Source of the DNA: a virus
Lineage: Duplodnaviria > Heunggongvirae > Uroviricota > Caudoviricetes
IMG/VR virus record: IMGVR_UViG_3300026521_000571
Reading direction: 5' to 3' (one strand)
Length of the DNA stretch: 64,000 nucleotides
Numbering within the stretch: the stretch's first letter is position 1; each line of letters starts with the position of its first letter. The position numbers were made by a program, and so were the translations under genes. The notes beneath the pieces are model-generated. The model ran no database searches, had not been told where the DNA came from, and worked only from the letters and a program-made list of their open reading frames with translations. This document shows, in pieces, positions 17,972 to 58,516 of the stretch.

Positions 17972-17977
17972 GATTAA

Positions 17978-18001
17978 TTCTAAGCCATAACTGGCTTAGA
18001 A
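17978..18001 (+). terminator. Perfect 10-bp stem-loop (ttctaagcca-taact-ggcttagaa) after 17480..17971
   Basis: Seen directly. Confidence 0.5.
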
Positions 18002-18094
18002 TTAATCAAACCTCCACCTCCCATAATACATCACCCTTACTTTAAAAATCTTCGATATTTTCAACAAAATTAAAACAATATCGGAGAAAAATAA

Positions 18095-23833: not shown

Positions 23834-23859
23834 TTTAATTTCCTTCTTATTTTATTTAT

Positions 23860-24044
23860 TTTTATTTTATTTTAAAAAAAATAGATGATTTATAACCCGC
23901 TGTCTCTGCGGCGTATGTTTAGTACCCAAGACTAACGCACATTGGCTGTTAGTGAATACCAGAGCATACATACAGTTTTTGATAACTAAAGTTACTGTAT
24001 AAACTTTAGCCAAGCACCCGACAACTTAATGCCGGACCTGGAAG
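23860..24044. repeat. Copy 1 of a ~185-bp element, 100% identical to 48916..49100 (ttttattttattttaaaaaaaatagatgatttataacccgctgtctctgcggcg ... gccggacctggaag)
   Basis: Base-by-base comparison of the two loci; GC-richer than surrounding DNA; internal hairpins such as ctaaagtt-actgtataa-actttag. Confidence 0.9.
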
Positions 24045-24060: not shown

Positions 24061-24291
24061 TTAGGCGTTACCCAGCTCCAATCTATTAACAACATATTCT
24101 TTATCTTCGGAGATCTCGAAGACCTCCGAGACTCCGAGATAATCTTCCAGCAAGTGTACACTTGCTGGAAGAACAGAAGATTCGGCGCAAGCTTGCGCCG
24201 AATCTTCATCTCTGAAATGGCCTACGATAGACGCCTCAGCATCTATCACAACGTAGAGCTTAAGCTCTACGTGGCCCAATAGTCTTTTCAT
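24061..24291 (-). CDS. Small acidic protein (76 aa) in a GC-rich island; the ORF contains three perfect palindromes of 22..30 bp
   Basis: AAGGAG Shine-Dalgarno 6 nt before the ATG; codon usage far more GC-rich than its neighbours; the palindromes raise the alternative of a structured RNA or DNA element. Confidence 0.45.
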   Translation of the reverse strand: MKRLLGHVELKLYVVIDAEASIVGHFRDEDSAQACAESSVLPASVHLLEDYLGVSEVFEISEDKEYVVNRLELGNA

Positions 24292-25507: not shown

Positions 25508-26887
25508 ATGCACGGCTCTGATTTTGAAGAAAAATTGCCTCTGGCTGCTCTTCGGACAGTCGGAGCGGCTCTTGCCCTGAAAAAAATTAAAGATAGTGGG
25601 TATTTGACTGGGACGAAAAATTATTATCATGGAACATCGAAAGAAAGAGCAGAAGAAATTAAAAAGAATGGGTTACTTTCAAATAATCTTTTAAATAACC
25701 CGGATTCAATTAAAACAACTGCTACTTTAAATAAGGATGTCGCTGCAAAAAGTGATGATTATGTTTATCTAGCAAATGATAAATCAATAGCAGATGCTTT
25801 TGCAAATTCTTATGTTACTCCAACGAAACGAGCACCAGTTGGGCTTAATACTGAAAAATCACCTTATGGAGAAACACTCGTCGTTCCGATGTCGACTCAT
25901 AAAAAATTTAAGAGAAATCCAGAGACTGAAATGGGTTTCGATGAGTGGTATAAACTTAATTCACTTAATGTCCCTAAATTAGTAGCTAGACAACATTATA
26001 ATTCTATTAATGATGATACAGTTACGATAAAAGATAAGCTTGATCCTAAATATATTAAAGGATCTCCGGATTATAAAAGTCAAGCTTTTAAAAATTATAA
26101 AACTAACTGGGTAAAGGCGCCTGGAAAAGCAGCCCTTGCCCATCTTGGTGTGGCCGGCGTACTTGGAGGAACAGGATATTCAATGTATAGATTATTTGAA
26201 AACATAACAGTGATAAATAAAATTGATTCAATTATAGAGGAAGCTTCTTTTATTAATAAAGTAAAAAATTTCTTTTCTGGGTTCGCAATCCCTAAAAATA
26301 TTTTTAATAATTTATTAAAGAAAGCTAAAGTTAATGGTAGTCAATCTATTAAAAAAGAATTACAAGAGGCAAAGAGTCTTAGAAATATAAATGCCCCTGA
26401 GGTTCATGGGAAAGTAGATTATCAAGGCACATGTTATACCGGCGCTATGAAATTAATTGGTCTTAAAAATCTCGTTAGAAAATATCCGGATTTTTATAGT
26501 TTCTATCAAGCGTATACTAAAAAGACAAAGCCAATATATACAAAAGATCTTACAAAAAAAGAACTTGAATCTCTTCCGAAGGGTACTGTCATGGCAATAG
26601 TTAATAAAAGAGAGAGTCGATCAACAGTAAATACCGAATACAATAAAGAGCTTGGAATGATTCAAGAGACTCGTAAGATGATCGGTCATGTAATGATTTA
26701 TATGGGGAGAGATTCTAAGAAGAAAATAATTATTTTAGAGTTAAGTTATCCAAATGATGATAGAACCTTAAATGGTTCTGAACTTGAGTTGCAATTAGAT
26801 TTTGAAACAGATAGCTTTTTTAAAAGATACAATACTGATAAAAGAGATCTAGTTGTGTTTGACTATAGAGTTATGAAGACCCTTTAA
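25508..26887 (+). CDS. Hypothetical protein (459 aa) with a central hydrophobic segment
   Basis: Shares the ENITV(I/V)NKID(S/N)IIEEA peptide, and ~50 bp of DNA, with the N-terminus of the preceding gene. Confidence 0.55.
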   Translation: MHGSDFEEKLPLAALRTVGAALALKKIKDSGYLTGTKNYYHGTSKERAEEIKKNGLLSNNLLNNPDSIKTTATLNKDVAAKSDDYVYLANDKSIADAFANSYVTPTKRAPVGLNTEKSPYGETLVVPMSTHKKFKRNPETEMGFDEWYKLNSLNVPKLVARQHYNSINDDTVTIKDKLDPKYIKGSPDYKSQAFKNYKTNWVKAPGKAALAHLGVAGVLGGTGYSMYRLFENITVINKIDSIIEEASFINKVKNFFSGFAIPKNIFNNLLKKAKVNGSQSIKKELQEAKSLRNINAPEVHGKVDYQGTCYTGAMKLIGLKNLVRKYPDFYSFYQAYTKKTKPIYTKDLTKKELESLPKGTVMAIVNKRESRSTVNTEYNKELGMIQETRKMIGHVMIYMGRDSKKKIIILELSYPNDDRTLNGSELELQLDFETDSFFKRYNTDKRDLVVFDYRVMKTL

Positions 26888-29800
26888 GAAGGGTCTATCT
26901 GTTTAATAAAGACATAATTGCCTGCGTCGAATATTCTGCGGTAGTCGTTATTGAACATATTCTCAGCTTCAGTAAGTTTTGGATCAAAAACTTTAAGTTT
27001 ATCTTTAAGCTTATGTTTCTGAAAGCTAGCTCTATGCCATAACTGCTGAGGATTATCTGGATGGAAATAATAATAGTTCGGTGAACTTATATTTTTTAGG
27101 GAAAAGCCGAGTGTTTTATATAGATTACCATCAGACCATCGGCGATTCGCATAACTAACCAAGGCTACACTTTTATCCTTAGGTAGATTTCTTTCGAAAG
27201 CCTTAAATAATTTACTAGCAGCTCCTGGAACAGACCAGTCTTTTTTAACAGCGAATCTAATTAATTCATAAGCAAGTCCTTTATTCTTTTCGAACCTTGT
27301 TTTACCAAATGTCATAATTGCAATTAATTCCCCTTTGTATCTTAGACCATATCTAATTGGTCCGATAGCATCTCCACCTTGCAGATGGTTTTCATCAAGA
27401 AAATCTCTAGCTTCAGGTACTTCTACACAAACTGTACACTTTCTAGCAAATACTCTATTTTTCTGTTTATGCATTTTATTCTGAATAACACTAAACCAAA
27501 TATTTTTCTGACGATTATCTAAGAACTCATTTTCATTAATATTCAAAAGATGAATACCTTTAGCTTCGGCATCTTTTAATTTCGAAAGCATTTGATTTCT
27601 ATCTTTACCAGGCGTATTGAAAATACTATGCTTACTTATACCTTGGCTATGGAACATCAAACCGTTGTATTCAATAGCTAGATTATAATCAGGTAGATAT
27701 AAATCTAATTCCTTAGGTGGAATAACATCTCTTGGGTTTCTAATAATTCTAGCATCAGGATCTATTGATTTAATAAAATTATATATTTCATCTTCAGCGT
27801 AGCTGGATGTTCGCTTTTTGTAAGTAATATTATGCTGGCGTAATAATTTATAAGCAGTTGTTTCACTACAGTTGATGGTTTCCATCATCCTGATTAAATC
27901 TAGCTTATTGTCTTCTACAAAAGATTTTAAAAACTCTTCACTGGATGGATATTTATTTTCAATTTTAGCCTTAAAACTATTTGCTTGTTGATAGCTATCG
28001 GCTCCATAACGTTCTCGACAAGTATTTTTGGTTTTAGCTAATGTTTCAGGCAATTTGCTTTGTATGATTGCTTTAAAACTAGGTGTTTGTGGATAATAGT
28101 CTACTCCATAACGTTCGCGATTGGTTTCAATAACTTTTAATTTACATTCATCCGTTTGTGAATAATGTTCTACACCATAACGTTCGCGATTGGTTTTAAT
28201 AACTTTTAATTTACATTCATCCGTTTGTGAATAATTTTTAACACCATATTTTTTAAGGTTAGTAGCTTTGGCTTTTTCTTGATATTCAGGCAACCTTACT
28301 TTATAAACATCAGATTGTGTGTAATTTTTAGCACCGTATTTTTTAAGATTAGTCTCTTGAGATTTCTTAATTATTTCTGGCAGTCTAGTTTTAAAACTAA
28401 TAGATTGCATAAAATGTTCTACACCATAACGTTCGCGATTGGTTTTAATAACTTTTAATTTACATTCATCCGTTTGTGAATAATTTTTAACACCATATTT
28501 TTTAAGGTTAGTAGCTTGAGATTTCTTAATTATTTCTGGCAGTCTTAATTTATAAATATCTGATTGTGTATAATGATCGACACCATACTGCTCACGACAA
28601 GTTGCTTTAGTTTTAGCTATTATTTCAGGTTTTCTTGATTTATAATTAACAGATTGTGTATAATAATCTGTTCCGTAACGCTCTTGGTTAGTTTTAATGG
28701 TTTTAATTTTATATTCATCTGTTTGTGGATAATAGTCTACTCCATAACGTTCGCGATTGGTTTCAATAACTTTTAATTTACATTCATCCGTTTGTGAATA
28801 ACTTTTGACACCGTATCTTTCAAGGTTAGTTTTAAAAATCTGTTTAATTATTTCAGGTAACCTAGTTTTAAAACTAGTTGATTGCGTATAATAATCGGTC
28901 CCATAGCGTTCGCGATTAGTTGCTTTGGATTTTAATTTATATTCATCAGTTTGAGTATAATATTCTACGCCGTATCTTTCGAGGTTGGTTTTAATAATTC
29001 TTAATTTGCATTCATCTGTTTGTGAATAATAATCTGTCCCATATCGTTCGCGATTGGTCTTAATAGTTTTATTTCTATATTCTGGTAATTTAGATTTATA
29101 TTCATCGGATTGTGTAAAATAAGCTGCTCCATACAATTTGCGGTTGGTTTCAATAACTTTTAATTTACATTCATCCGTTTGTGAATAACTTTTCGCCCCG
29201 TATTTTTCTAGGTTGGTTTTAAAAGCCCGTTTAATTATTTCAGGTAGCCTAGTTTTAAAACTGGTTGATTGCATATAACTGTCAGTCCCATAACGCTCAA
29301 GACAAGTCATCTTCGATTTAATTTTAAACTCATCTGTTTGGAAATACCAATCAGCATTATAACGCTCACGATTAGTTTTAATAATTTTTTCTAAAATTTT
29401 GATAGAATTTTCTTTAATAAAATTTTTAAAAGCTTCAGTTTGTGAATAATGTTCTACACCATATCTTTCAAGGTTAGTTGCTTTCGCTTTCTCTTGGACT
29501 TCGGGCAGCATACTTGGGACAGCAACTCCATATGTCTCCAAAAAATAATTTTTAGTTTTTTCTTTAATTTCTTCGGATTGTGCTGCGTGACGTACACCAA
29601 AACGCTCCAAATTAGTCTGTTCCTGTTTTTCTTTAATTTCTTTTACTTGCAAAGCATGTCTTACACCGTATTTTTCTTCGAGAGAATCCTGTGCTTTATC
29701 TACAGTATATCTTCTCATATATTCAGTATGTTCTTGGTCTTTTTTACCGCAGGTATAATAGAATCTACTTCTTCCCTGCTCATAAAATCTTAAGTCACCA

Positions 29801-30072
29801 CAGACTGGACAAAAAGCATCATCACCAATTAAACCATTTCGAATAAATATTAATCTAGTATTATCATCAATATCTTCAGGTAAAAAATCAGTGTACTTTT
29901 TAATAGTGCTTTTGAAACCTAAATATTCTTCTTTTAATTTTTTTCGTCTAGGGCATTTAGCGAAACGCTTTGTTTTTGGATTATATACTTCAACTTCTTC
30001 TAGAAATTTTAAATACATATCTGGTTCAAGATATTTTATTCTAATATGTTCTTTTATATTCTCATCTTGCAT
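26884..30072 (-). CDS. Large tandem-repeat protein (1062 aa) with a C-terminal nuclease-like domain; putative homing-endonuclease-like protein
   Basis: N-terminal Cys pairs (CPRRKK, CPVCG ... TCGKKD); about 30 tandem 24..31-aa units (YSQTDECKLKVIETNRERYGV/DY); then LDLYLPDYNLAIEYNGLMFHSQG resembling the PD-(D/E)xK Vsr/DUF559-type core; conserved tail shared with 32033..33715. Confidence 0.75.
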   Translation of the reverse strand: MQDENIKEHIRIKYLEPDMYLKFLEEVEVYNPKTKRFAKCPRRKKLKEEYLGFKSTIKKYTDFLPEDIDDNTRLIFIRNGLIGDDAFCPVCGDLRFYEQGRSRFYYTCGKKDQEHTEYMRRYTVDKAQDSLEEKYGVRHALQVKEIKEKQEQTNLERFGVRHAAQSEEIKEKTKNYFLETYGVAVPSMLPEVQEKAKATNLERYGVEHYSQTEAFKNFIKENSIKILEKIIKTNRERYNADWYFQTDEFKIKSKMTCLERYGTDSYMQSTSFKTRLPEIIKRAFKTNLEKYGAKSYSQTDECKLKVIETNRKLYGAAYFTQSDEYKSKLPEYRNKTIKTNRERYGTDYYSQTDECKLRIIKTNLERYGVEYYTQTDEYKLKSKATNRERYGTDYYTQSTSFKTRLPEIIKQIFKTNLERYGVKSYSQTDECKLKVIETNRERYGVDYYPQTDEYKIKTIKTNQERYGTDYYTQSVNYKSRKPEIIAKTKATCREQYGVDHYTQSDIYKLRLPEIIKKSQATNLKKYGVKNYSQTDECKLKVIKTNRERYGVEHFMQSISFKTRLPEIIKKSQETNLKKYGAKNYTQSDVYKVRLPEYQEKAKATNLKKYGVKNYSQTDECKLKVIKTNRERYGVEHYSQTDECKLKVIETNRERYGVDYYPQTPSFKAIIQSKLPETLAKTKNTCRERYGADSYQQANSFKAKIENKYPSSEEFLKSFVEDNKLDLIRMMETINCSETTAYKLLRQHNITYKKRTSSYAEDEIYNFIKSIDPDARIIRNPRDVIPPKELDLYLPDYNLAIEYNGLMFHSQGISKHSIFNTPGKDRNQMLSKLKDAEAKGIHLLNINENEFLDNRQKNIWFSVIQNKMHKQKNRVFARKCTVCVEVPEARDFLDENHLQGGDAIGPIRYGLRYKGELIAIMTFGKTRFEKNKGLAYELIRFAVKKDWSVPGAASKLFKAFERNLPKDKSVALVSYANRRWSDGNLYKTLGFSLKNISSPNYYYFHPDNPQQLWHRASFQKHKLKDKLKVFDPKLTEAENMFNNDYRRIFDAGNYVFIKQIDPS

Positions 30073-30168: not shown

Positions 30169-31983
30169 ATGGCTCAATTGACCCACAATTTAAAAGGTTC
30201 CGGAGTTTTTGACAAACACGGAAATGAAATAGATATCGCGAGAGCTTATCTAATGTGTAAAATGTCACCGTTATTTTTTATAGAGAATTTCGTTATTATT
30301 GAGGTTGCTGGAGGTAAAATACCTATTAAAGAATCTGATTTATGGTATAGCACTCCGAAATATAGACAATTAATTCGAGGATTGCAAGAGTTTGACGCCG
30401 TTTCGTTTATGGCATCACGCCAGCACGGGAAAACTCAAACTGTGGCAGAATATTTGCTCTGGGCAATAATTTTCCACCCAGGTCTATTAATTGAGTACGT
30501 CACCTTAGATTCCAAGCGTGCTACTGACTTTATTAAACGTATAAAATTCATGCTCAAAGAATTACCTGATTGGCTTCGCGTTGATTTCAAAGGCAAATCA
30601 GAAAAAGTTACTTTTATTGAGCTTGAAAATGGCGCTAGAATTAACTCAAATTATGTTAGTGGTAGTATTGATCCTGATCGTCTTGGGCGTGGTATGTCAG
30701 CACCAATCATATACATTGATGAAACAGCTTTTATCCCAAAAATGGATATTGTCTGGGTAGCGATGCAACCAGCTATTTCAGCTGCAAGTAGATTTGCCAA
30801 GAAAAATGGATATCCAAATGGAATCATTTATACAACAACCCCAAATGGAGCTGGTGTAAATTTCTTTTATAATGTTTGGACCAGAGGCTGGGATAGCTCA
30901 GAATTATTCGAAGGCGATTCAATAAAAATTAGAGAAGACTGGCGTGATGTATTAGATTCAGACGATAATAAAAATAACTTCGTTAGGTTTAAAATTCACT
31001 GGTCTGAGACTAATAAAGATGAGAAATGGTATAAACAGCAAATTAAAGAATTGAACTTTAATATGAGAAAGGTTTCTCAAGAACTCGACCTGGTATTTCT
31101 TGGATCAAATAATGCTGTTTTCGACGATAGTATTCTTGAAGTTTTTACACCAAAAACAGTCAAAAGTGAACTTACATTGGCTTATGGAGAGAAGTTTAAT
31201 TTATTCGAAGATCTTGATCCAGAGAAAAAATACCTACTTGGGGTTGATACAGCAGCTTCAACTGCAGCTAAAAGCGACTATAGTGCTATGGTTTTGGTTG
31301 AAGCAGAGACTGGTCTTCAAGTTGGTGAATGGCATGGAAAATTCTCGATCGTAAAAAGATTTGCGCTGATGGTTAAATCAACGATCAGAGGACTTCATGA
31401 TATTCATGGATTGACAGATGATAGTTTAACAGTAATAATAGAAAGAAATAGTTTTGGATTAGGTGTTGTGGAAGATATTCTTTATTCGGATGAAGATTTC
31501 GATTATCCAGGTTATATGTACTGGACACAATTAAAACATGATAAAGTTCCTGGAATGCAGACTGACGCCAAACGTCGTGAGAAAATGTTTAATTTACTAT
31601 TGAGTATAATTAATGAAAATCCAAAATTAGCTCAAGGTGTTTTATTACAAGAAGAACTTCGAAATTTAGAGCAGAAACCGAATGGAAGATTTGAGGCGAC
31701 GACCGGAGCACATGATGACGTCGTGCTTTCATACAACTTCTGTCTTTTCGTCCGCGACGAGATGATCAAAGATGGATTAATTACACTAGATGGGAGTTTC
31801 AATAAACTCAATGCTGAACGTATAAATTATTATTTAGATGTAAGTATGAATAGTGTTGATCTCTTGAAAGATCGAAGAAAAAATAAAGAAGAATTAGAGA
31901 TAATCATTATAGATAACGATCATGAAGAGCGGCGCCAAGAAATGGACCAATTTGATTTCTGTAATAATATTATTATGCTTTAG
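30169..31983 (+). CDS. terL: Terminase large subunit (T4 gp17-like ATPase plus nuclease)
   Basis: Walker A SRQHGKTQT; Walker B IIYIDETAF; RNaseH-like nuclease motifs LGVDTAASTA and AHDDVVLSYNF; 604 aa. Confidence 0.9.
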   Translation: MAQLTHNLKGSGVFDKHGNEIDIARAYLMCKMSPLFFIENFVIIEVAGGKIPIKESDLWYSTPKYRQLIRGLQEFDAVSFMASRQHGKTQTVAEYLLWAIIFHPGLLIEYVTLDSKRATDFIKRIKFMLKELPDWLRVDFKGKSEKVTFIELENGARINSNYVSGSIDPDRLGRGMSAPIIYIDETAFIPKMDIVWVAMQPAISAASRFAKKNGYPNGIIYTTTPNGAGVNFFYNVWTRGWDSSELFEGDSIKIREDWRDVLDSDDNKNNFVRFKIHWSETNKDEKWYKQQIKELNFNMRKVSQELDLVFLGSNNAVFDDSILEVFTPKTVKSELTLAYGEKFNLFEDLDPEKKYLLGVDTAASTAAKSDYSAMVLVEAETGLQVGEWHGKFSIVKRFALMVKSTIRGLHDIHGLTDDSLTVIIERNSFGLGVVEDILYSDEDFDYPGYMYWTQLKHDKVPGMQTDAKRREKMFNLLLSIINENPKLAQGVLLQEELRNLEQKPNGRFEATTGAHDDVVLSYNFCLFVRDEMIKDGLITLDGSFNKLNAERINYYLDVSMNSVDLLKDRRKNKEELEIIIIDNDHEERRQEMDQFDFCNNIIML

Positions 31984-32032
31984 TGTTTCTAAATACTACT
32001 ATATAAAATTTAAATTAAAAAGGTTTTATTTT

Positions 32033-33715
32033 ATGGAAAACGATATGTTAGAAAAGTACGATAAATTTATTAAAAAATATAGTTCATTAGGAATAATAAA
32101 TTTTAAAGGGATTCGAGGGAAATCAAAAGCGAATAAAAATCAAAAAAAATTAATACATGAAGCGGAAGATGAATTGTGGAAGCTGACAGATTTTGCACCT
32201 GAAAATTACACCACTAAAGATAGAATGCAATTGATACGTGCCAAAATAACTTCTGAAAATTTTAAATGCCCAGTGTGTTCTAAACCCAGAATTAAATCAA
32301 ATGGGATGAATAAATTTTCAATTACTTGTGGTAAAAAAGATAAAGAACATGTAGAATATGCAAAAAAAGTTTTAAGCGATAGATTAAGAAAACCTAAAAA
32401 ATGTCCAGTTTGCGGGATAATGCATAATAATCGAAGTAAAGCCCAACTATGTGGTCTGATTGATGATGAGCATAAACATCATGCTATATCCTACCAGCAA
32501 TCAAAATATAAAAACACATTAATGGAAAAATATGGTGTCGAAAATGTCTCACAATTGGAAACTACTAAAGAAAAAAAGAAGAAAAAATTTCTAGAAAAAT
32601 ATGGTGTTGAAAACCCATCTCAATTGCATTTTAATCTAGATAATTTTAAAAATCTGAATAAAGAATTTATAGAAAATAATTTTATTATTGATGGCAAATA
32701 TGTTGATTTTGAAAAAATGGAGGAATATCTTGGTTGCTCAATTGTTAAAGTAAAATCAGTTCTTAAAGAGTTTGGTATAAAATATAAAAGACGTATCGGA
32801 GTGAGTAAACCTGAAAAAGAAATTTTAGATTTCATTAAAACAATAGATCCAGATGTTAGAGTTATTATGAATTCAAAGACCATTATTCCGCCTAAAGAAT
32901 TGGATTTATATCTACCTGATTATAATCTAGCTATTGAATACAATGGCTTGATGTTCCATAGCCAAGGTGTAAGTAAACACCGTATTTTCAATACTCCTCT
33001 AAGAAATCGTAATGAATTTTTAATAAAGACTAAAGTTTGTGAAAAAAAAGGAATACAGCTTTTACATATCAATGAAAATGAATGGTTAGATGATAAATTA
33101 AATATAATATGGAAATCAGTAATTAGAAATAAATTAAGAAAGAATACAATAAGTATAGGTGCTAGAAAATGTTTTCTTAGAAAACTAGTAACAGATGAAG
33201 ATCTAAAATTAAGCGCTAATTTTTTTTATGAAAACCATCTGCAAGGTGCAGGTGCTTTGGGTTCAATAAGGTATGGTTTATTTTATGAAGGCGAATTAAT
33301 ATCATGTATGACATTTGGTAAGACTAGATTTAGAAGAGGAGCATATGAATTAATAAGATTTGCTAATAAAATAAATTATAGTGTTCCAGGAGCGGCTAGT
33401 AAACTTTTAAAAGCATTCAGACAAGACCATAGCACAATTATTGTGAGTTATGCCAATCGCCGATGGTCTGATGGTAATTTATATAAAACACTTGGATTTA
33501 AATTAGAAGGAATTTCGAGTCCAAATTACTATTATTTTCATCAAAAAAATAAATTTAAGCTATGGCATAGAGCTAGCTTCCAGAAACATAAGCTTAAAGA
33601 TAAACTTAAAGTTTTTGATCCAAAGCTTACTGAAGCTGAGAATATGTTCAATAACGGCTTCCGTAGAATATTCGATGCAGGCAATTATGTCTTCATCTTA
33701 GAGGAGAAGGGTTAG
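32033..33715 (+). CDS. Paralog of 26884..30072: short-repeat version with the same C-terminal nuclease-like domain and tail
   Basis: Zn-ribbon-like CPVCS ... TCGKKDKEH and CPVCG ... CG; two EKYGVEN repeat units; LDLYLPDYNLAIEYNGLMFHSQG identical to the paralog; 3' ~130 bp about 95% identical at DNA level; start chosen at ATG 32033 to avoid overlapping terL. Confidence 0.7.
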   Translation: MENDMLEKYDKFIKKYSSLGIINFKGIRGKSKANKNQKKLIHEAEDELWKLTDFAPENYTTKDRMQLIRAKITSENFKCPVCSKPRIKSNGMNKFSITCGKKDKEHVEYAKKVLSDRLRKPKKCPVCGIMHNNRSKAQLCGLIDDEHKHHAISYQQSKYKNTLMEKYGVENVSQLETTKEKKKKKFLEKYGVENPSQLHFNLDNFKNLNKEFIENNFIIDGKYVDFEKMEEYLGCSIVKVKSVLKEFGIKYKRRIGVSKPEKEILDFIKTIDPDVRVIMNSKTIIPPKELDLYLPDYNLAIEYNGLMFHSQGVSKHRIFNTPLRNRNEFLIKTKVCEKKGIQLLHINENEWLDDKLNIIWKSVIRNKLRKNTISIGARKCFLRKLVTDEDLKLSANFFYENHLQGAGALGSIRYGLFYEGELISCMTFGKTRFRRGAYELIRFANKINYSVPGAASKLLKAFRQDHSTIIVSYANRRWSDGNLYKTLGFKLEGISSPNYYYFHQKNKFKLWHRASFQKHKLKDKLKVFDPKLTEAENMFNNGFRRIFDAGNYVFILEEKG

Positions 33716-33735
33716 GTTCCATTTGGAACCTAACC
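33710..33735. terminator. Perfect 11-bp stem-loop (ggttaggttcc-attt-ggaacctaacc) between convergent genes
   Basis: Seen directly; overlaps the stop codon of 32033..33715. Confidence 0.55.
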
Positions 33736-35013: not shown

Positions 35014-35325
35014 CTATGAGAGATCTTTAAAGATCTCTTTCATTTTTGCTTGAGTTTCCTCAAGTTGCTTGACTTTATCTTTTACTTTTTTACGACCTTT
35101 CTTTGTACTAATGTTACGCCCAACAACATCTTCAGGTTTAATATCCATTTTCTTAGCTGTTTTTTTAGCAAATTTAGCTAGATCTTTTAAGGTTGCATCC
35201 TCTGAAAGAATTCCACCTTTTTTATAAGCTTCTAAAAAACCAACCATAGCGACAGTTGTTTCAGCTATAAAATTTGCAGCATCCGGAACATTCACCAACA
35301 TTTGACCTTTTTCTATTGTAATCAT
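35014..35325 (-). CDS. Hypothetical basic protein (103 aa)
   Basis: ORF, start coupled to the Pnkp-like gene stop. Confidence 0.5.
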   Translation of the reverse strand: MITIEKGQMLVNVPDAANFIAETTVAMVGFLEAYKKGGILSEDATLKDLAKFAKKTAKKMDIKPEDVVGRNISTKKGRKKVKDKVKQLEETQAKMKEIFKDLS

Positions 35326-37829
35326 TTTTCTTCCTTTAAAATTTTAATTATTTTTCTTCTTAGTGTCGGAACATCTAGATTGTGTTCACCATTTTCGTGA
35401 ATCTGTTTCAATGCCTCAAGAACCTTAAATTCTTCAGCAATATGTAGTGATTTTTTGACCAGTATCTCTTTCTCTTTGGTGAATCCTCCTTTTTTTTGAT
35501 TCAAGTAATATTTATTAACTTTGTGTTCGATTCCTCTTACTCTTTTCCAAAAACTATACCAAGGTGTTTTTAATTTAAACATTATTGGTGATTGACCATC
35601 GTTTGTGTTATCTTCGAACACAAAGCCTTCAAAGCCATCGTCAATAAATAATGGTTGTCTTTTATACTGGTTTATAAAAGCACTTAAATCCAATGAATTG
35701 TGTAGTTTATCTACGATTTCTTTTACAGGTGCGCCTATATAAACACTATTAAAATCCAATAAACCTTCGTAACTCATTTTTTTGAAGTTCAATTCATTAT
35801 AGATAATATCTAATAGAATCGCTTGCCCTTCAGGATACCCAACGATATGTGGATCTTTGACCGGATCAATAATTTCAAATACCAATGTAGCATTGAGTTC
35901 TTGCAATTTTATTAAAAGATTCGGAGTCAAGAAATCTTTCGTATGTTCTCGAACCATATCTGGATAATCACCTTTTATAGTACTTTTGCTTGCGAAGAAC
36001 CATTTGCCATTTCTAACAGATACTAAACCGAGAAAACCATTAGGTTTATCGAACACGCTAACTGGATAGTTTAAGCTTTCAAAATCAGCTGGTGTTAATC
36101 CCATTCGCTCATTGAGGTTAAAGAATTTATTATAACCACGGGCCACTATTTCGATCGGATTGTTTTGAGTTAAAAATAAACCTCTAGCTCTTAAAGTTAT
36201 ATCCGACCAGTGGCCTTTTTGAAAGACAGATGATTTAAAATTTACACTTTCGATTTTTTCATCACCTTCTTCAAAATATAATTCTTTGCATACAGTTCCT
36301 TGATCAGTTTTGAGTTCTTCTAGAACCTTTTGATGTTCTTCTTCTGGAATTATGTCGACAGCGAAAGCCGCACTTTTTTTAAGACGTCGAGTTCTTAAAC
36401 ACTCTTTTGTCTTTTCTGTCGGCTCTTGATTGATAATCCTTATGTTTGAGTTATTTATAACACAAGCTCGAATACCAATGCTAACATCACCATTTAAGTT
36501 GATTAATGGAAAAGTATCCATAGCCTCTTTATTCTCTGGATTTCTATGGCCCGAGAATTGGATGACATTTTGAGTCCTCTCTTTGAATACATTGGCTATT
36601 TCATATATGTCTTCATATACTCCAATTCCATTTATAAGTTCATTAGCTGGTGTCACAAGATTTGGAACACTCGGAGTTCCGGTGTGGTTCGAGTACAAAT
36701 GAACTCTTTTACCTTGAAATATAAAAGAAGAGATTCTATAAGGAACCATTTTTCGCCAGATTTTCATAAGATCATTTCTAGTTATATGACTCAACATTAG
36801 AATCAACATTGATCTTCTTGCACTAAATCTAATGTTTTTTACATCTGTTGCTGTTGCACTATCAACATTTATAAATTCTTTCTTTTTGAAAAGAGTCCAA
36901 AATAACTCATAACGCAATTCTTTTAAAAGATCTTCATCCAGAATTCTATGAAGTTTATCAATATCTCTATACGCTGCAATCTTGCCGAATCCTTTTTGCT
37001 CCAAGAAAATATTGATATGAGGGAGAGCTGCTTTATATAAACTCTTAAAATATATCATAGAGCCTTCGTGATTGCCTTGAATCAATTGACAATTATGATT
37101 ATCAATCAAATCTAAAAGAATTGTTGCTGTTTCAACAATACTCTTTGCGCTTGGACCTCGATCAAAATAATCACCGAGGAATGTTATATTTTTAGGGGCT
37201 TCATTAGATTCCCAATCAACACCAGCTGCCTTTAGAGTTAATTTTAACTCATCAGCACAACCATGAATATCACCAATATATATTTTCTCATGGGTTTCAG
37301 TTTCATCAAAAGCAGTTCCAGAGAACTCATTAGCAAATTCATGTGGTTTTATTACTGAGTACCAATTTGGATGTTCAATCAATTGACTTCTATACCATAG
37401 GGTTTCAATTCGATCATTTGGAACTTTATTGATTGTCCGGTGCCCGTTTCTTTCAAGAAGAGTTTCTAAAGACACATCAGTAAAATCAATACACTTGATT
37501 TGATATCTATGCTCTTCTTTATATTTTTTATAAATTCTTATCGCAGCCTCACGAGTGTGTGTTGCATCAACTACAATCATTTCACCATTTTTAGCTTTCT
37601 GATCTATAATTTTAAAAACCATTTCCCAAACGAGTTCTTCTGAACTCATTGCGTACCGGCGACTTGCGTCAACCTGTTGCTCTGGGAAATTTATCATTTT
37701 CCTAATGTTATCAGGACTCACAACACAGTGTTGCAAAATATCACTACCAAAAATATCTTGTGATGTTTTTTCAATTAATGTTGTTTTTCCTGCGCCAGGA
37801 GCTCCCAGCATAAAATATAAAACTCTCAT
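35322..37829 (-). CDS. Pnkp-like trifunctional RNA repair enzyme: polynucleotide kinase, calcineurin-type phosphatase and a C-terminal RNA-ligase-like adenylyltransferase
   Basis: N-terminal P-loop MLGAPGAGKTT; central GDIHG, GDYFDRG and GNHEG metallophosphatase motifs; C-terminal KxNG lysine motif (FDKPNGFLG) in a ~380-aa domain; order and size (835 aa) mirror bacterial Pnkp. Confidence 0.75.
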   Translation of the reverse strand: MRVLYFMLGAPGAGKTTLIEKTSQDIFGSDILQHCVVSPDNIRKMINFPEQQVDASRRYAMSSEELVWEMVFKIIDQKAKNGEMIVVDATHTREAAIRIYKKYKEEHRYQIKCIDFTDVSLETLLERNGHRTINKVPNDRIETLWYRSQLIEHPNWYSVIKPHEFANEFSGTAFDETETHEKIYIGDIHGCADELKLTLKAAGVDWESNEAPKNITFLGDYFDRGPSAKSIVETATILLDLIDNHNCQLIQGNHEGSMIYFKSLYKAALPHINIFLEQKGFGKIAAYRDIDKLHRILDEDLLKELRYELFWTLFKKKEFINVDSATATDVKNIRFSARRSMLILMLSHITRNDLMKIWRKMVPYRISSFIFQGKRVHLYSNHTGTPSVPNLVTPANELINGIGVYEDIYEIANVFKERTQNVIQFSGHRNPENKEAMDTFPLINLNGDVSIGIRACVINNSNIRIINQEPTEKTKECLRTRRLKKSAAFAVDIIPEEEHQKVLEELKTDQGTVCKELYFEEGDEKIESVNFKSSVFQKGHWSDITLRARGLFLTQNNPIEIVARGYNKFFNLNERMGLTPADFESLNYPVSVFDKPNGFLGLVSVRNGKWFFASKSTIKGDYPDMVREHTKDFLTPNLLIKLQELNATLVFEIIDPVKDPHIVGYPEGQAILLDIIYNELNFKKMSYEGLLDFNSVYIGAPVKEIVDKLHNSLDLSAFINQYKRQPLFIDDGFEGFVFEDNTNDGQSPIMFKLKTPWYSFWKRVRGIEHKVNKYYLNQKKGGFTKEKEILVKKSLHIAEEFKVLEALKQIHENGEHNLDVPTLRRKIIKILKEEK

Positions 37830-38311: not shown

Positions 38312-38453
38312 CTTTTTCCTTTAATATTTTTAATATTTTAAACATTTTAAACATTTTTAATGTTCACTAGTCTATTTTTAGACACATAGATCTAACCAAA
38401 GTTTAATTATTATTATCTACTCTACATATTTTCCTCCTTATTAAAGATAAATT

Positions 38454-40913: not shown

Positions 40914-41750
40914 CTAGACCCCTTCAAGGATGAGATTATCGAGATCCCAATCCTCTTTAGACCACACTGCAAAGAAGCCGTTCGCGTGAACGAACTTAGC
41001 TCCTTTACTTTTTTTAGTGATTACAAGGTGATCTGTGTCCACAGTCACTTTGATCTCTTGGGTTTGTGGGTCGTGGAATATCGACCCTACCACACCTTCG
41101 TGGTAGGCCTGGATATCTTTAAGGCTGACAAACTCACCGACCTCCACAAAAGCCCAATTCCCAACTTTGAGTGGACGAGCTGCTTTTGCTCTCCCCTCAA
41201 AGATTTTCTCTTTTTCAGATCTAGAAGCTGCAGCTGCAGCCTCTAACTCACCAAAGATTTTACCAGCGGCCGGCGAGAAGATTTCACGGATAATTTTCTC
41301 GGCGAAATTCAAGGCCTTCGAGAAGGCCACCTCCTGATCGATGCCCTGGATATCCAGGGCATTTAGATCCCCTAGATACCCTAAATATCGATCCCATGTA
41401 TTATTTGGATCGTAGTTGACGCGAGTATCCCTCGCGTCAACTGCCTTAACTAGGTCAGCCATAACCTCGTTATCATCATCGGTTCCCCATAAATATTCGG
41501 CAACTAGGCCGAATGCGCTTCGACCATATTGCTCATCATCCTTTTGAAAATGATGGTGATCAAATCTAAAAGCAGCCGGATTATAAACACCACCGACATC
41601 TACCACGATATCCGCGGTTTCAATTATCTCATGATTACGAGATCTTACTATCTCGTAATCATGACCAGCAGCTCTAAGAGCAGCTATAGCAAATACTTCG
41701 TCCGCATGGAAAATTCCATTATGAGTTATTAAAGTTTTCATTATATTCAC
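40914..41750 (-). CDS. MYG1 / UPF0160 family metal-dependent hydrolase-like protein
   Basis: N-terminal THNGIFHADEVFA motif characteristic of MYG1/UPF0160; His-rich FDHHHF; GC content visibly higher than genome average. Confidence 0.7.
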   Translation of the reverse strand: MNIMKTLITHNGIFHADEVFAIAALRAAGHDYEIVRSRNHEIIETADIVVDVGGVYNPAAFRFDHHHFQKDDEQYGRSAFGLVAEYLWGTDDDNEVMADLVKAVDARDTRVNYDPNNTWDRYLGYLGDLNALDIQGIDQEVAFSKALNFAEKIIREIFSPAAGKIFGELEAAAAASRSEKEKIFEGRAKAARPLKVGNWAFVEVGEFVSLKDIQAYHEGVVGSIFHDPQTQEIKVTVDTDHLVITKKSKGAKFVHANGFFAVWSKEDWDLDNLILEGV

Positions 41751-41759
41751 CTTATAAGA

Positions 41760-42365
41760 TTACACCCAATGAAAAGGGCTGCAGCATTACCTGCACTATA
41801 ATATGTCTATTATTGACAACTATAAAGAACCTACCCGATGTAAGTTCAATAATATTATTTATATACTAACTGAAGTAATTCTAAAATGGTTTCAATAGAT
41901 TATGTTTTACAAAAGCCAAATGTTTACATCGGCTTGAGTGCGAGTTAACTCGCACTCTTTGAAATAAATTATTTTATGTTTTACAAAAGCCAAATGTTTA
42001 AACCTATTCCAGTTATGTTGGAACATAACTCTTTAAAAAGTTTAAACTTTTTAAAGACAGATGAACTTGGGTTTAAACCCAAGTTCATAACTCTAGTCAA
42101 TTTTTAATTGACTAGATAAAGGAAAATGATTAAAATCATTTTCCGAACTCTTTGAAATAAAATTAGAAAATGATTTATTTATAATAATCATTTTCTTGAA
42201 GACACTATGTTGGTTTATAAACCAACATAGTGTCGAATTATTTAGAAAATACAAAAGCCAAAACGTCCACAACATTTAGAGTTGATTATTACTATTATAT
42301 AAAAATATATTAGCAGTGCTTTAATCATTTAGCATAAAGACCTGACAATATTAAAAGGAAATAAA
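41760..42365. promoter_or_regulatory. 600-bp non-coding divergent hub packed with perfect palindromes and copies of all intergenic repeat families
   Basis: Promoter-like element 41811..41890; GTTTACA motif plus 26-bp palindrome agagtgcgagttaactcgcactct (41935..41961); inverted copy of the window-start element (41975..42040); palindromes aaaagtttaaactttt, gaacttgggtttaaacccaagttc, ctagtcaattttt-aattgactag, ggaaaatgatt-aa-aatcattttcc; ~100-bp element with 34-bp palindrome (42162..42260). Confidence 0.8.
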
Positions 42366-42890
42366 ATGAGTTTTATAGAAACCTTTCAGAACATGTCTGT
42401 TATTTTATTCGAAAAACTGAATCCAAAAAAGATGGTTATTGATCGTGTAACTTTCAAAGGCCTTGAGAAACTACAGAAAAAAGTAGAAAATCAACGGACA
42501 AACCTTAGTAAGAATAATGAAATTATTAAAGAGCTTAGAGTGCAAAAGAACTCTTTAGAAGAAGAATTAAAAGAACTTCAGGAAGTTGTAGAAACAGTTC
42601 GTCCTGAAATAAATAAAGATAAACTCACGAAGTGGTCCAAAAGAGTTAAAGCTATAGGCAAATGTGATATATGTTCAAGCACAGATAATCTTACAGCTCA
42701 TCATCTTTGGGATAAGAAGAATCATCCATCTTTAATTTATCAAGATGAGAATGGAGTGTGTTTATGCACCAAATGCCATAATGCTTTTCATAACACTTAT
42801 ACACAAAAGTCACATTGCACACCGAGTATTTATAATAAATTTAAAATAAAAAGACAAACTGAAATAAATATGGGGTGGATTGATGACTAG
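42366..42890 (+). CDS. HNH endonuclease
   Basis: CDICSSTDNLTAHHLWDKKNHP ... CLCTKCHNAFH (Cys pairs, HH, N and H of the HNH beta-beta-alpha-metal motif). Confidence 0.8.
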   Translation: MSFIETFQNMSVILFEKLNPKKMVIDRVTFKGLEKLQKKVENQRTNLSKNNEIIKELRVQKNSLEEELKELQEVVETVRPEINKDKLTKWSKRVKAIGKCDICSSTDNLTAHHLWDKKNHPSLIYQDENGVCLCTKCHNAFHNTYTQKSHCTPSIYNKFKIKRQTEINMGWIDD

Positions 42891-44553
42891 TTTAATAACA
42901 TTTCAAGAATATATTTCAATTAAGCAGTATGGAAATCTGGATAAAGACTATCCGAAAGTTTCAGAATTTTTAGATAATGCTTGTGTGTTTTATGACTCAA
43001 ACCAAGAATTTTTCGACTGGTTTAAAGTCAGAGAGTTTGAACATAAAGACCCAGCTTATGTTTTAGTACCGAAATTCTTTTGGGAATTTCATAAAAATAT
43101 TCCAGATATGATTCATGTAGAATCTGATCCTCTTAAAAATTATTTTGCAGGTGTACAAGACCATCCAGTTTTTCAACCAGCTGATGCTTTCGAGTGCCCA
43201 GCGACTCCAAGAGAGGAACAGGTACCTCTGATAGAAAAAATTACAAAAGAGTTCCAAAGCACTCAAAGGGTCAATGGAATTATTTCAGCCGCTCCAGGCT
43301 TCGGTAAAACATTCATTAGTATTAAACTATCTGCTTTATTGAATCTAAAAACTTTAATAATAATTCCGAATGAAATTCTAAGTGATCAATGGATTCAAGC
43401 AATAATAAATTTTACTGGTTTGTCTAAAGAAGATATAGGTCTTATAGAAGGCAGTGAGATTAAAGACATTCGAAATGGTCTCGATAAGAAAATTACTTTA
43501 ATTAAAGTCCAGAGTCTCTATAGCCAATTAAAAAGAATTCAGCCCAATAATCTCAAAGAGCTTTATAAAAATATAGGTTTAGTATTTTATGATGAATGTC
43601 ATACGAGTGGCGCAGCCGAAGGTTATGCGAAGACATCAAGTATTTTCACGACGAATAATATCATAGGTTTATCGGCGACACCTTATAGAATTGGCTTAAA
43701 TGATTACCTTATGCAAGTTTCAATCGGCGGTATTCTTTATAGAAGCGAACATAAAAATCTTATTCCTGATTGTGAACTGTATAAATTAAATATCGAATTT
43801 ACAGATAATGAGATTAAAAAACTAGTATCAGTAAGTGGCGATTTTGTAATGTTCAATAGCTTTTTTACAATGTTCCTTGCAAATAAACAACCGTATTTTG
43901 ATTATTTAGCTGATTGGGTTTATTATAATCAAAAGCAGGGACATAAAACTGTCGTTCTTTTTAGCACTAATAAAATGGTTAAAAAATTACACGAAACGTT
44001 TATTAAAAAATACCCAGATTATGATAAAGAAACGACTCTTGTTTTAACAGGAAAAACTAAAAAAGATGTAGCTGATTTGGTTTCAAAAGAGCGAAAAAGG
44101 ATTATGCAAGAATATAAAGCATTTAGAGAGACTCAGGATCAACGAGTTAAAAATAAAGAGATAAAAAGAAAAGAAGCCAACCTAATAATTAAAGAGGAGC
44201 GTAAAAGAATTGATTCCTTGATTGAAGATATAAAAAATAACGCTTATAATTTATACAATCAGAAAAAAGACGCAGCAGATATCATCTTCAGTAATTATAT
44301 ACTCTTGAGTGCTGGCTTTGATAAACCAGAGCTAAGTAATATTATTTATGGTTCACCGAGAATTGGTAAAGTATCAGTAATTCAATCTCTTGGTAGAATT
44401 ACAAGAATCTACGAAGGTAAAAAACAACCTCTAGCTCAGTTTATGCTTCCGGAAGTTTATTTAAGATTTCAAAAATCAGCTCCGGTAATTTTAATTAATA
44501 ATATAAGGATAGAATATGACACAGCTCGAATTAAAAAATTTTACTTCGATTGA
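42880..44553 (+). CDS. Superfamily 2 helicase (DExH-type)
   Basis: Walker A AAPGFGKTF; DExH box VFYDECH; motif III SATPYR; motif VI SLGRITR; charged coiled-coil insertion between the RecA-like domains. Confidence 0.8.
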   Translation: MMTSLITFQEYISIKQYGNLDKDYPKVSEFLDNACVFYDSNQEFFDWFKVREFEHKDPAYVLVPKFFWEFHKNIPDMIHVESDPLKNYFAGVQDHPVFQPADAFECPATPREEQVPLIEKITKEFQSTQRVNGIISAAPGFGKTFISIKLSALLNLKTLIIIPNEILSDQWIQAIINFTGLSKEDIGLIEGSEIKDIRNGLDKKITLIKVQSLYSQLKRIQPNNLKELYKNIGLVFYDECHTSGAAEGYAKTSSIFTTNNIIGLSATPYRIGLNDYLMQVSIGGILYRSEHKNLIPDCELYKLNIEFTDNEIKKLVSVSGDFVMFNSFFTMFLANKQPYFDYLADWVYYNQKQGHKTVVLFSTNKMVKKLHETFIKKYPDYDKETTLVLTGKTKKDVADLVSKERKRIMQEYKAFRETQDQRVKNKEIKRKEANLIIKEERKRIDSLIEDIKNNAYNLYNQKKDAADIIFSNYILLSAGFDKPELSNIIYGSPRIGKVSVIQSLGRITRIYEGKKQPLAQFMLPEVYLRFQKSAPVILINNIRIEYDTARIKKFYFD

Positions 44554-44995
44554 TAAAACACCGAGGCTTCATAAAAGAATACACCTTTTTTTAAAAAGAA
44601 TGTATTTTATTCTGGATAAAGAGATTTGCACAGAAGATGTTCAAAAAGAAGCTTATAAAGAATATCAAGATTTAATACTACTGGGTTTAAGAAATAACCA
44701 AGAAGAGTTCAGTAAGGAATTTTATAAAGTTGCCTTAGCTATGGTAAACAATTTGGTTGATTTAGAAACCAAAACTGAGTTTAGTTTTATTAGATTGAAT
44801 TCTGAAAAACTAAAGGATTTATTCTTAAGTTTTTTAGATGAATTGATAATGAACGCTATTGTTGAATTCGACGGACAAGAAGGTTTTAAACCAACTGTAA
44901 TTTACTATCAAGAGTTATTTTTTCATTCTGGTGAAACGGAATATAAATTATTACAAGATGACATTTCAAATATTTCAATTAAGGATACAATATGA
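44516..44995 (+). CDS. Hypothetical protein (159 aa)
   Basis: ORF overlapping neighbours in an operon. Confidence 0.45.
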   Translation: MTQLELKNFTSIDKTPRLHKRIHLFLKRMYFILDKEICTEDVQKEAYKEYQDLILLGLRNNQEEFSKEFYKVALAMVNNLVDLETKTEFSFIRLNSEKLKDLFLSFLDELIMNAIVEFDGQEGFKPTVIYYQELFFHSGETEYKLLQDDISNISIKDTI

Positions 44996-48893: not shown

Positions 48894-48915
48894 TACAATT
48901 TCCTTTTTAATTTTA

Positions 48916-49100
48916 TTTTATTTTATTTTAAAAAAAATAGATGATTTATAACCCGCTGTCTCTGCGGCGTATGTTTAGTACCCAAGACTAACGCACATTG
49001 GCTGTTAGTGAATACCAGAGCATACATACAGTTTTTGATAACTAAAGTTACTGTATAAACTTTAGCCAAGCACCCGACAACTTAATGCCGGACCTGGAAG
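48916..49100. repeat. Copy 2 of the ~185-bp element, 100% identical to 23860..24044
   Basis: Base-by-base identity. Confidence 0.9.
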
Positions 49101-49603: not shown

Positions 49604-50350
49604 TTATCCTCCTTTCTGGGTAATGACTTAGGAGACATCACCACCCGAAGATAAGATTTTAGCCCATATCCTCTTTTAGGACATTTACCGATATTGTGGT
49701 TTAGAGGACCAAGTCGACCTTGGACGCCCACACGCTCGGTTAACACGCATCGCAGACTACTCACCTCAATTGGAGGCTTCTTTGTGTTTTACACATTGTC
49801 CCTACGACGACATCAGCAACCAGTTTAACCTACTACTGGAAAGAAATAATTCTACTAAAACATCCAATGATATCATAGTAGAATTATTATATTATACACG
49901 TACTCGAGACGAATCTCGAGATTATAACGCCTGCTGGCCAACAGGTTATCCCTTTTGATGCTTTTCACATCAGGCGGACAGTCTAAACTCTCCAACTTAT
50001 ATAGTTATTAATTCCCATATAAGTAGTATTTTGCCGAAATCCGAAGATACGACATGTTTTATGTATATTAAATACTAGAATATACAACCATTATTTAAAG
50101 TTCTAGGGGAACCCGCACAATATAATTAGACTTTTTATCAGACTATCTTTGACTAATGTCCTTTCGATAATCTTCAATACTAATCTAATTGTATGAATTG
50201 CACTAGAGATAGCATACACTTATCTCCTAAAAATACTTCAGAGCAATAAATTACTCCTTGTACTTTCAATAATATTATTTATATACTTCAAGAAGTTATT
50301 CTAAAATAATAAAATGTCCAAAACAAACATTAATACATAGAGGAGTTCAA

Positions 50351-58465: not shown

Positions 58466-58471
58466 TTATTT

Positions 58472-58516
58472 GGAGGTTGAGTGCTTAAGCACTCAACCTC
58501 CAACCCTTCCGTGCCC
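58472..58516 (+). terminator. Perfect 13-bp stem-loop (ggaggttgagtgc-ttaa-gcactcaacctcc) followed by AACCCTTCCGTGCCC
   Basis: Third member of the hairpin-plus-CCCTyCyGTGCC family. Confidence 0.6.

Follow-up and report, generated by a model that had tools for sequence, protein, structure and literature searches.

A palindrome-dense divergent intergenic region of a tailed phage as a candidate transcription-control locus

Intergenic regions of T4-type phages contain PeSLs (promoter-early stem-loops), composite motifs of ~70-100 bp present in many copies, whose promoters match the sigma-70 consensus, whose stems typically read GGGG...CCCC and of which normally one flanks an open reading frame (ORF) (Arbiol et al. 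2010, PMC2839356; Comeau et al. 2014, PMC4122927). In jumbo phages that encode RNA polymerases (RNAPs), the early promoters are located in gaps between divergent operons, and those read by the virion RNAP of the AR9/phiKZ type are invariant AT-rich ~10-mers with a start ~6 nt downstream (AAATATATATTAT-6N-G in AR9) (PMC7598289, PMC5312081). Here we describe a divergent intergenic gap, referred to as the hub, located at positions 41742-42365 of a 64,000-nt stretch of caudoviricete DNA (IMG/VR record IMGVR_UViG_3300026521_000571; the whole stretch is called the window), in which sequences resembling both kinds of element are combined with a dense cluster of perfect palindromes.

On account of its palindromes, three options had originally been proposed for the region, namely an origin of replication, a site for packaging or clustered operators and promoters, and the last of these fits best. 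We consider it slightly more probable than not (roughly 0.55) that the gap is a non-coding transcription-control region, in which an expanded array of promoter-like/hairpin cassettes is attached to a conserved divergent promoter.

Palindrome cluster and mosaic structure of the gap

The gap is 624 bp long, has no credible ORF and, as had been proposed, separates diverging genes. On its left, a minus-strand gene encoding a protein with a MYG1-like N-terminus (40914-41741) ends at 41741, while on its right a plus-strand operon starts at 42366 and encodes, in this order, an HNH endonuclease (42366-42890), a SNF2/ResIII-type helicase, the product of a 159-amino acid (aa) ORF, a ParM/Alp-like actin and a dNMP kinase. 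All seven palindromes listed in the original prediction were found in the gap, together with an eighth, AGTTATGTTGGAACATAACT. Their clustering is even tighter than described, since they span 299 bp (41936-42234) and not ~450 bp. The first palindrome of the list is present, although with other letters than those given: it is the 22-nt perfect palindrome GAGTGCGAGTTAACTCGCACTC (41936-41957), preceded by T and not by A.

Hairpins were counted as perfect stems of at least 9 bp with a loop of at most 12 nt, and block dinucleotide shuffles of the 64-kb window served as the null model. The shuffles give 8.5 ± 2.3 hairpins per 64 kb, i.e. ~0.08 per 624 bp, against the eight perfect hairpins or palindromes (stems of 9-17 bp) observed in the gap. 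Segment 41890-42250 is predicted to fold into nine hairpins in a row, with energies of -120.6 kcal/mol (plus strand) and -126.1 kcal/mol (minus strand), compared with ~ -55.5 ± 5 kcal/mol after shuffling (z = -13.7 and -13.9, respectively). The palindrome cluster in the gap does exist and greatly exceeds what chance would produce.

When gap and window were compared by short words, 55% of the gap proved to be made up of modules with copies elsewhere. The gap as such is not unique, nor is it conserved over its full length; it is a mosaic composed of module E1, A units and extra palindromes. An A unit consists of a conserved ~30-nt box, TTTTACAAAAGCYAAATGTTTACATCGGCTT, followed by an interchangeable perfect hairpin framed by GAGT...ACTC, and the hub carries 2.5 copies in tandem. 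A pattern search with the A box retrieved only two contigs, both from one metagenome (Ga0256828), of 136,864 bp (loci L001/L008 and L012-L014) and 9.9 kb (locus L007); other loci fetched for comparison are likewise denoted by L numbers. The parts of the gap are as follows, with the strand given where one was assigned.

41742-41826, minus strand: leader and ribosome-binding site of the MYG1-like gene, with a sigma-70-like TTTATA-17-TATTAT (41826 to 41798; consensus match only)
41822-41886: E1, putative promoter module, comprising an imperfect hairpin at 41827-47 (GAACCTACCCGATGTAAGTTC) and, at 41855-84, the core TTATTTATATAC-N8-GTAATTCTAA; on the reverse strand it reads AGTATATAAATAAT-6N-G
41894-41968, plus strand: A unit 1, with box TTATGTTTTACAAAAGCCAAATGTTTACATCGGCTT, hairpin a (41936-41957) and tail TTTGAAATAAA
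41968-42031, plus strand: A unit 2, with the 27-nt start of A unit 1, a box that has diverged in its 3′ half, and hairpin b (CAGTTATGTTGGAACATAACTC) at 42010-42031
42030-42057: P3, 28-bp perfect palindrome TCTTTAAAAAGTTTAAACTTTTTAAAGA, single copy among the window and the fetched loci
42061-42088: P4, 28-bp perfect palindrome ATGAACTTGGGTTTAAACCCAAGTTCAT, single copy, terminator-like on the minus strand only
42092-42116: P5, hairpin TCTAGTCAATT-TTT-AATTGACTAGA, single copy
42121-42144: P6, GGAAAATGATT-AA-AATCATTTTCC, with two copies in the L007 array, each beside P7
42147-42196: second copy of the hairpin-a tail (ACTCTTTGAAATAAA), then P6′, AGAAAATGATT-N10-AATCATTTTCT, with TATAAT in its loop
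42201-42234: P7, 34-bp perfect palindrome, also present twice in L007
42236-42262, plus strand: A unit 3, truncated (TTAGAAAATACAAAAGCCAAA) and without a hairpin
42282-42365, plus strand: HNH gene leader with its ribosome-binding site (ATG at 42366), preceded by a sigma-70-like TTGATT-18-TATATT (consensus match only)
42366-42890, plus strand: gene for a free-standing HNH endonuclease, separating the gap from the helicase gene

The right part of the hub has a counterpart in a paralogous gap at 16 kb: the 107-nt block 42156-42262 (P6′, P7 and the start of the truncated A unit 3) is 97% identical to 16168-16273, and the sequence GAAAATGATT, present in exactly four copies within 42122-42195, occurs only once more in the window, at 16178 in that gap. 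The right arm of P5 contains the TTGACT of the best sigma-70-like match of the gap, TTGACT-17-TAAAAT (42108-42136); the scan for such promoters gave seven matches against 5.2 in shuffles.

The hub had been thought to hold every intergenic repeat family of the window. This is so for E1, the A units and the P6/P7 block, whereas at least three other families are absent from it. One is AAGGAGGAAAATATGTAGARTAGATA, found upstream of two minus-strand genes (14080-14104 and 38313-38337) and at L012:5732-5759, which may represent a second class of promoters. Another is a 208-nt repeat (23837-24044 and 48897-49100; 97% identical), GC-richer and ORF-free, which immediately precedes two different minus-strand genes; no Rfam family matches it, and it might function as a structured leader common to both or as a non-coding RNA. 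The third is a hairpin followed by CCCTCC.

Hairpins across the window and the A units

Perfect hairpins are in excess throughout the window, which contains 61 of them (8.5 expected), 38 with stems of at least 11 bp (0.7 expected), as well as 19 complete palindromes without an unpaired centre (1.1 in shuffles). More than half of the hairpins (33/61) are located inside ORFs, with stems of up to 16 bp. The hub is the densest spot, with eight hairpins against at most three in any other gap. Palindrome richness is a property of this genome and not a mark of the hub locus, and the density of palindromes is no signature of an origin in genomes where they are abundant everywhere. Examples outside the hub are found at 10665-10704, 12232-12267, 41629-41664 and 58470-58503, while GAGT/ACTC forms part of the stem in 13 of the 61 hairpins (5.6% in random draws). 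At 24066-24290, three loopless perfect palindromes (arms of 15, 16 and 11 bp) are arranged in tandem within a putative 75-codon minus-strand ORF, a stretch that may be coding or may represent a structured RNA.

This excess, inside ORFs as well, could be produced by selfish or neutral palindromic repeats (REP/BIME-like, MITE-like or by-products of template switching), nesting where insertions are tolerated and having little function of their own. REP/BIME elements are enterobacterial clusters of imperfect palindromes, mobilised by RAYT transposases and credited with termination and mRNA stabilisation. The hub resembles them as an extragenic cluster of palindromic units joined by a few conserved types of linker, and differs in that its palindromes are perfect, many palindromes are located inside ORFs, and no transposase or RAYT-type gene turned up among the window ORFs scanned. 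Such an explanation is further suggested by the flipping of loops relative to the A box between copies, by the absence of the array from relatives (see below), by the adjacent HNH gene and by the hub palindromes that recur in coding sequence, namely the 18-bp core of P7 (9985-10002, inside ORF 9596-10882) and a 27-nt match to hairpin a within ORF 179-703. However, the conservation of the A box far exceeds that of its surroundings, the placement of hairpins after stop codons is non-random, and gene-proximal A units consistently lack hairpins; we judge this explanation rather improbable. The palindrome within ORF 179-703 is a 30-bp perfect one (442-471), an A-flanked form of hairpin a and possibly an insertion, and supplies ten in-frame codons (KECELTRTLC); homologues of the encoded protein were found only within its own cluster, which comprises one near-identical strain variant.

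Perfect hairpins with stems of at least 9 bp occur at 10 of the 15 co-directional or convergent junctions inspected (14 gaps of at least 60 nt and the short convergent gap 33716-33735). A scan for terminator-like sites flagged four, against 0.3 in shuffles, and most hairpins of the hub and of gene 3′ ends are devoid of a U tract, several being followed by CCCTCC. After the stop-codon hairpins at 3113-3156, 5078-5117, 17972-18022, 58470-58510 and L014:7246-7312, the U tract is replaced by a C-rich motif (CCCTCCTGT, CCTCCACCTCCC or CCCTTCC), which resembles an anti-Shine-Dalgarno sequence. Within the stem at 58470-58503 itself, GGAGG is paired with CCTCC, around the position where the next gene starts.

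Outside the hub, A units were identified at 16119-16160, 16261-16292 and 1-140 (minus strand, inverted) of the window, as well as in L001 and L007, the last of which contains at least eight units head to tail; its short units have one hairpin, and its long ones carry P6 followed by P7, i.e. the hub pair. The units have a period of 69-76 nt and perfect hairpin stems of 6-17 bp, with five different inner stems occupying the GAGT...ACTC frame after the box. The invariant part of the unit is located directly 5′ of the hairpin and is preceded by sequence that exists in three versions. Hairpin b is also present at 5-26 and 81-102, in L001 and, standing alone, at L014:7353, in a convergent gap between two other hairpins. 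A co-occurring strain variant, L018 (ENA ERZ27262639; 1,106 bp), is 93.4% identical to window positions 23-1125 and carries hairpin a exactly where the window has hairpin b (81-102), the flanks being conserved. This swap indicates that it is the hairpin and not its sequence that is kept, and that hairpins are exchanged between sites.

In all three cases in which an A unit abuts a gene in the forward direction (16264-16300, 42236-42262 and one in L001), it has no intact hairpin. Such a loss would be expected if the units point to the gene and the hairpins impede transcription. Several known types of element were considered and rejected. The GTTTACA of the A box does not make a sigma-70 -35 element, since in none of the units is TTTACA followed by a -10 hexamer at 16-18 nt; Bacteroidetes-type promoters were discarded, as their motifs are absent and the genes have strong Shine-Dalgarno sites; and none of the look-alikes of Fur, LexA, sigma-28 or DnaA sites, sought by eye or pattern search, was convincing. 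Although the period would suit a CRISPR array or a repeat-mimic RNA, in which repeats of 28-37 nt alternate with unique spacers, here the "spacers" are recurring palindromes with shared flanks, and the Rfam CRISPR match (E = 0.53) falls on E1.

The cassettes share with PeSLs the combination of a promoter-like box and a stable stem-loop, repeated in intergenic regions (A units at no fewer than four loci), and an association with accessory genes (homing endonucleases, for instance) and with indels and the swapping of modules among close relatives. Module exchange of this kind was observed as the hairpin swap in L018 and as the presence here of the array and the HNH gene, both absent in relative L009. 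On the other hand, the A box does not show the sigma-70 consensus, AT-rich perfect palindromes framed by GAGT...ACTC form the stems, and the units stand head to tail with no ORF between them, instead of one cassette per ORF. The array is thus a variant of the PeSL and not a member of that class, as it lacks both the sigma-70 promoter and the ORF-flanking arrangement. It would extend the concept of reusable promoter/hairpin cassettes as recombination substrates beyond T4-type phages.

The invariance of the segment directly upstream of the hairpin, compared with the three versions further upstream, also suits a different product: each A unit might be a small-RNA gene. The short RNA, a regulator or decoy, would join a conserved, single-stranded 5′ portion (AAAUGUUUACAUCGGCUU) to a 3′ hairpin that varies. 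Internal units retain their hairpins, the gene-adjoining one has lost it, and hairpins a and b have a U-rich flank on the forward strand (UUUGUAAUUUUU). Nevertheless, no promoter or target was defined for them, the relatives have no A units, and no Rfam family reached its gathering score (best hub E-value 0.1; the hub and two other gaps gave only implausible weak matches). We regard tandem small-RNA genes as very improbable.

The over-representation of loopless palindromes (19 against 1.1) might instead reflect an array of protein-binding sites, either operators of a global phage regulator or a centromere-type region on which an adaptor loads the ParM/Alp-like actin encoded 2.6 kb downstream. 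Models for the latter are plasmid F, with its 43-bp sopC repeats in tandem, and phage N15, whose palindromic centromere sites are dispersed. The A box would then be a quasi-palindromic 23-bp site (AAGCC-G-ATGTAAACAT-TT-GGCTT), with the arms of P6 and P6′ as further sites; its stem variation fits neither strand as RNA, and the four copies of GAAAATGATT form two inverted pairs with different spacings, each bracketing a -10-like hexamer. The actin-like gene adjoins the helicase gene in all relatives, yet these have neither A units nor a palindrome array. The free interchange of hairpin sequences is unlike a sequence-specific site, the same hairpins are found at gene 3′ ends, and no candidate adaptor protein was identified. 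We consider a protein-binding array unlikely.

Module E1, relatives and companion contigs

E1 is the part of the gap that the phage shares with its relatives. The core TTATTTATATAC-N8-GTWATTCTAA has four exact copies in the window (16077, 24374, 41855 and 50275), all on the plus strand, against 0.01 expected, and apart from the hub (41822-41886) the module starts at 16045, 24341 and 50265. It occupies four of the five divergent gaps of the window and was also found in relatives L009, L010, L011 and L015, where most copies are in divergent gaps and two weaker ones between co-directional genes. In an alignment of 15 copies, including five independent relatives, two blocks are invariant, TATTT.TATA and T.ATTCTAA. 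A conserved G is located 8 nt downstream of the core on one strand; on the other strand a G is found 6 nt downstream in the copies of the window, L013 and L014 and ~7 nt downstream in more distant relatives. The pairing of the E1 hairpin is kept by compensatory change, with T-A at 16 kb and C-G in L014, and an intermediate form that makes a G.U pair on the minus strand only.

E1 might be read in either orientation. At L014:10170, L010:11183 and L015:11306 there is a downstream gene only on the strand reading AGTATATAAATAAT-6N-G, and what follows on this strand is usually a run of small unannotated ORFs. On its opposite side, E1 is in several gaps separated from a start codon by only 37-55 nt, which is too short a distance for a separate promoter, so E1 may work in both directions. 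On the basis of its conservation and placement, we regard E1 as a putative promoter module of ~45-65 bp, apparently common to the whole phage lineage, that marks almost every operon divergence point. On its reverse strand E1 contains TATAAATA; identification as a T4 late promoter was rejected, and the similarity is recorded only as a resemblance. Beside the E1 copy at 50 kb, a stretch of ~600 nt (49604-50260), ORF-free and GC-richer, separates the module from the start of a minus-strand gene, and a comparable but dissimilar stretch (L012:12285-12480) adjoins another E1 copy.

No close relative of the phage was found in the phage collection by megablast or blastn, and the best matches of its terminase and helicase in cultured phages are 24-26% identical. 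Independent relatives were recognized by helicase homologues sharing 56% (L009) or ~45-47% identity (L010, L011, L015 and L016). At the junction corresponding to the hub, L009 has a 195-bp gap with E1 only, without A units, palindrome array or HNH gene; L010 and L011 are similar (gaps of 195-285 bp, E1 only, no HNH gene), and the more distant L002 has a co-directional gap of 135 bp. These E1-only junctions suggest that ~480 bp of cassettes and the HNH gene were inserted between E1 and the helicase gene in this phage, and the palindrome array appears to be a lineage-specific addition.

The same comparison argues against a replication origin, since a conserved origin would be expected at this junction in relatives with the same replication genes, and the array is present there in none of them. 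In such an origin the tandem units would act as iterons or as promoter-primed origins, and AT-rich spacers would unwind beside the helicase operon. The location just in front of the genes for the HNH endonuclease, the helicase, the actin-like protein and the dNMP kinase is compatible with this, as are the direct and dense inverted repeats, as is the presence of several copies of the modules, because T4-type phages have several promoter-dependent origins. Promoter-primed origins such as T4 oriF/oriG and T7 phi1.1A/B also show that an origin and transcription control are not mutually exclusive. Like iteron origins and sopC centromeres, the hub has tandem direct repeats, each with an inverted repeat, near replication and segregation genes. 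It differs from them in its 70-76-bp period and interchangeable palindromes, in its occurrence at several loci, and in its absence from relatives that keep the replication and actin-like genes.

Other features of the hub also speak against an origin, as well as against a single "master" locus. Its modules recur in at least three other gaps of the window, one of them upstream of a gene annotated as tail-fibre-like (16351), and in the long arrays at contig ends. Iterons would appear as at least three direct repeats of ~17-22 bp in helical phase, whereas the hub has a 27-mer present twice at a distance of 74 nt and a 13-mer present three times (74 and 268 nt). No match to the DnaA box TTWTNCACA was found in the hub within one mismatch keeping the CACA core, and no initiator gene was identified. 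With a GC content of 0.27 and a longest A/T-only run of 20 nt, compared with 28-37 nt in other gaps, the hub is not exceptionally AT-rich. The proposed check by GC skew, performed on the window, showed that skew follows gene orientation and is lowest near 50 kb, not 42 kb. As for a packaging site, the large terminase gene (30169-31983) is 11.6 kb away from the hub, and the contigs break at another A-unit array, the one at the window start. The sequence evidence thus makes an origin very unlikely, and none of it favours an origin or a packaging site over the alternatives.

The two Ga0256828 contigs share non-coding modules with the window at 83-100% identity, and only one ORF in 54.8 kb is similar to the window. 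They match the window in composition (tetranucleotide r = 0.98-0.99; GC content 29-31%). The array at the window start has a version of the spacer whose only other occurrence is at the end of the 137-kb contig, and this array continues exactly as that end begins. The window start (1-140) coincides with contig ends in two assemblies (L017:1-9), inside the A-unit array, and the 137-kb and 9.9-kb contigs also end in A-unit arrays (L001:10930-11126 and L007:1-600). Viral matches from motif searches in public collections (L003-L006) were dismissed as chance matches, and a motif search of a species-genome collection gave no match. Given the match in composition, the continuation of the array, the shared spacer version and the fact that the window's own contig is missing from the searched collection despite exact pattern matches, the companion contigs are most likely other pieces of the same or a near-identical genome of ~250 kb, whose assembly broke at tandem arrays. 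In view of the 84-98% identity of the cassettes and the lack of shared genes, we had considered a transfer of cassettes between unrelated phages; this idea was withdrawn, as composition, the array junction and the missing contig favour one genome.

The 137-kb contig carries, beside a primase gene, split pieces of an RNAP beta′ subunit (phrog_2986, 3e-39; phrog_3015, 3e-27; Pfam RNA_pol_Rpb1_5 above cutoff), whose best cultured matches, at 30% identity, are in AR9-like Staphylococcus jumbo phages. No RNAP pieces were found among the window ORFs scanned. E1 resembles the early promoters of AR9, phiKZ and phiR1-37 in its invariant AT-rich core of ~10 nt, TATTTATATAC (TATATAAATAAT on the other strand), in the conserved G 6-8 nt downstream, and in its position between divergent operons of a lineage that appears to encode split beta/beta′ subunits. 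It is unlike them in that a further invariant block, TnATTCTAA, is found at a distance of 8 nt from the core, and in that the polymerase genes are on a companion contig. By resemblance and circumstantial context, E1 is a candidate member of this class of promoters, which a virion RNAP might read.

Proposed function and further features

If the gap is a transcription-control region, E1 would probably fire leftward (AGTATATAAATAAT-6N-G) into an operon of the MYG1-like gene and RNA-repair genes, and maybe rightward too. To the right of E1, the phage has added the 2.5 tandem A units and six further palindromes. The hairpins may act as transcript-end or attenuator structures that insulate the two divergent operons, as is suggested by similar hairpins after stop codons elsewhere in the genome, and the last A copy, without a hairpin, would let transcription run into the HNH-helicase-ParM-like operon. 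The array may grow, shrink and swap hairpins via recombination among cassettes.

Several observations weigh against this proposal. Most hub hairpins have no U tract on either strand and so are not canonical intrinsic terminators, and eight terminator-like hairpins in one divergent gap seem to be more than insulation would need. Of the 32 hairpins in which 0, 2 or 4 nt remain as a loop between the perfectly paired arms, 19 are complete palindromes, compared with ~8% expected for random tetraloops according to our own base-composition estimate; this excess points to symmetry at the DNA level (sites of dimeric proteins) or to recognition of both strands, and not only to RNA folding. The A box fits no recognised promoter consensus, its direction rests on indirect arguments, and its reverse reading gives weak sigma-70-like matches (TAAACA-16/18-CATAAT or TAAAAT; 9/12 positions). 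Finally, the RNAP genes belong to a companion contig that is only probably part of the same genome.

A bolder idea, which we consider unlikely, is that the A-unit arrays and the genome-wide excess of perfect palindromes belong to a single phage-specific system, in which a phage protein or the phage's own RNAP reads perfect hairpins framed by GAGT...ACTC, whatever their inner sequence, as stop, processing or loading signals, with A arrays serving as batteries of small hairpin-RNA genes or as loading sites for the actin-like protein. The nearest parallel is the "hairpin rule" for transcript ends in Mimivirus, and, if the idea is true, hairpins would constitute a code for transcript ends or for the handling of DNA in a bacterial virus. 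Together, E1, the A units and the gene-end hairpins provide a self-consistent set of candidate promoter and terminator signals for a lineage that has no cultured relative and probably possesses its own multisubunit RNAP.

Genes on both sides of the gap include a possible RNA-repair set, composed of an 835-aa fusion of polynucleotide kinase, phosphatase and RNA ligase (35322-37829), the MYG1-like gene (40914-41741) and an ORF with a weak, sub-threshold archease-like match (44516-44995). Two large repeat-rich proteins of 1062 and 597 aa (26884-30072 and 31922-33715), matching phrog_3339/phrog_559 (homing/HNH endonuclease), are encoded on opposite strands on either side of the large terminase gene, and a third copy is present in L001.

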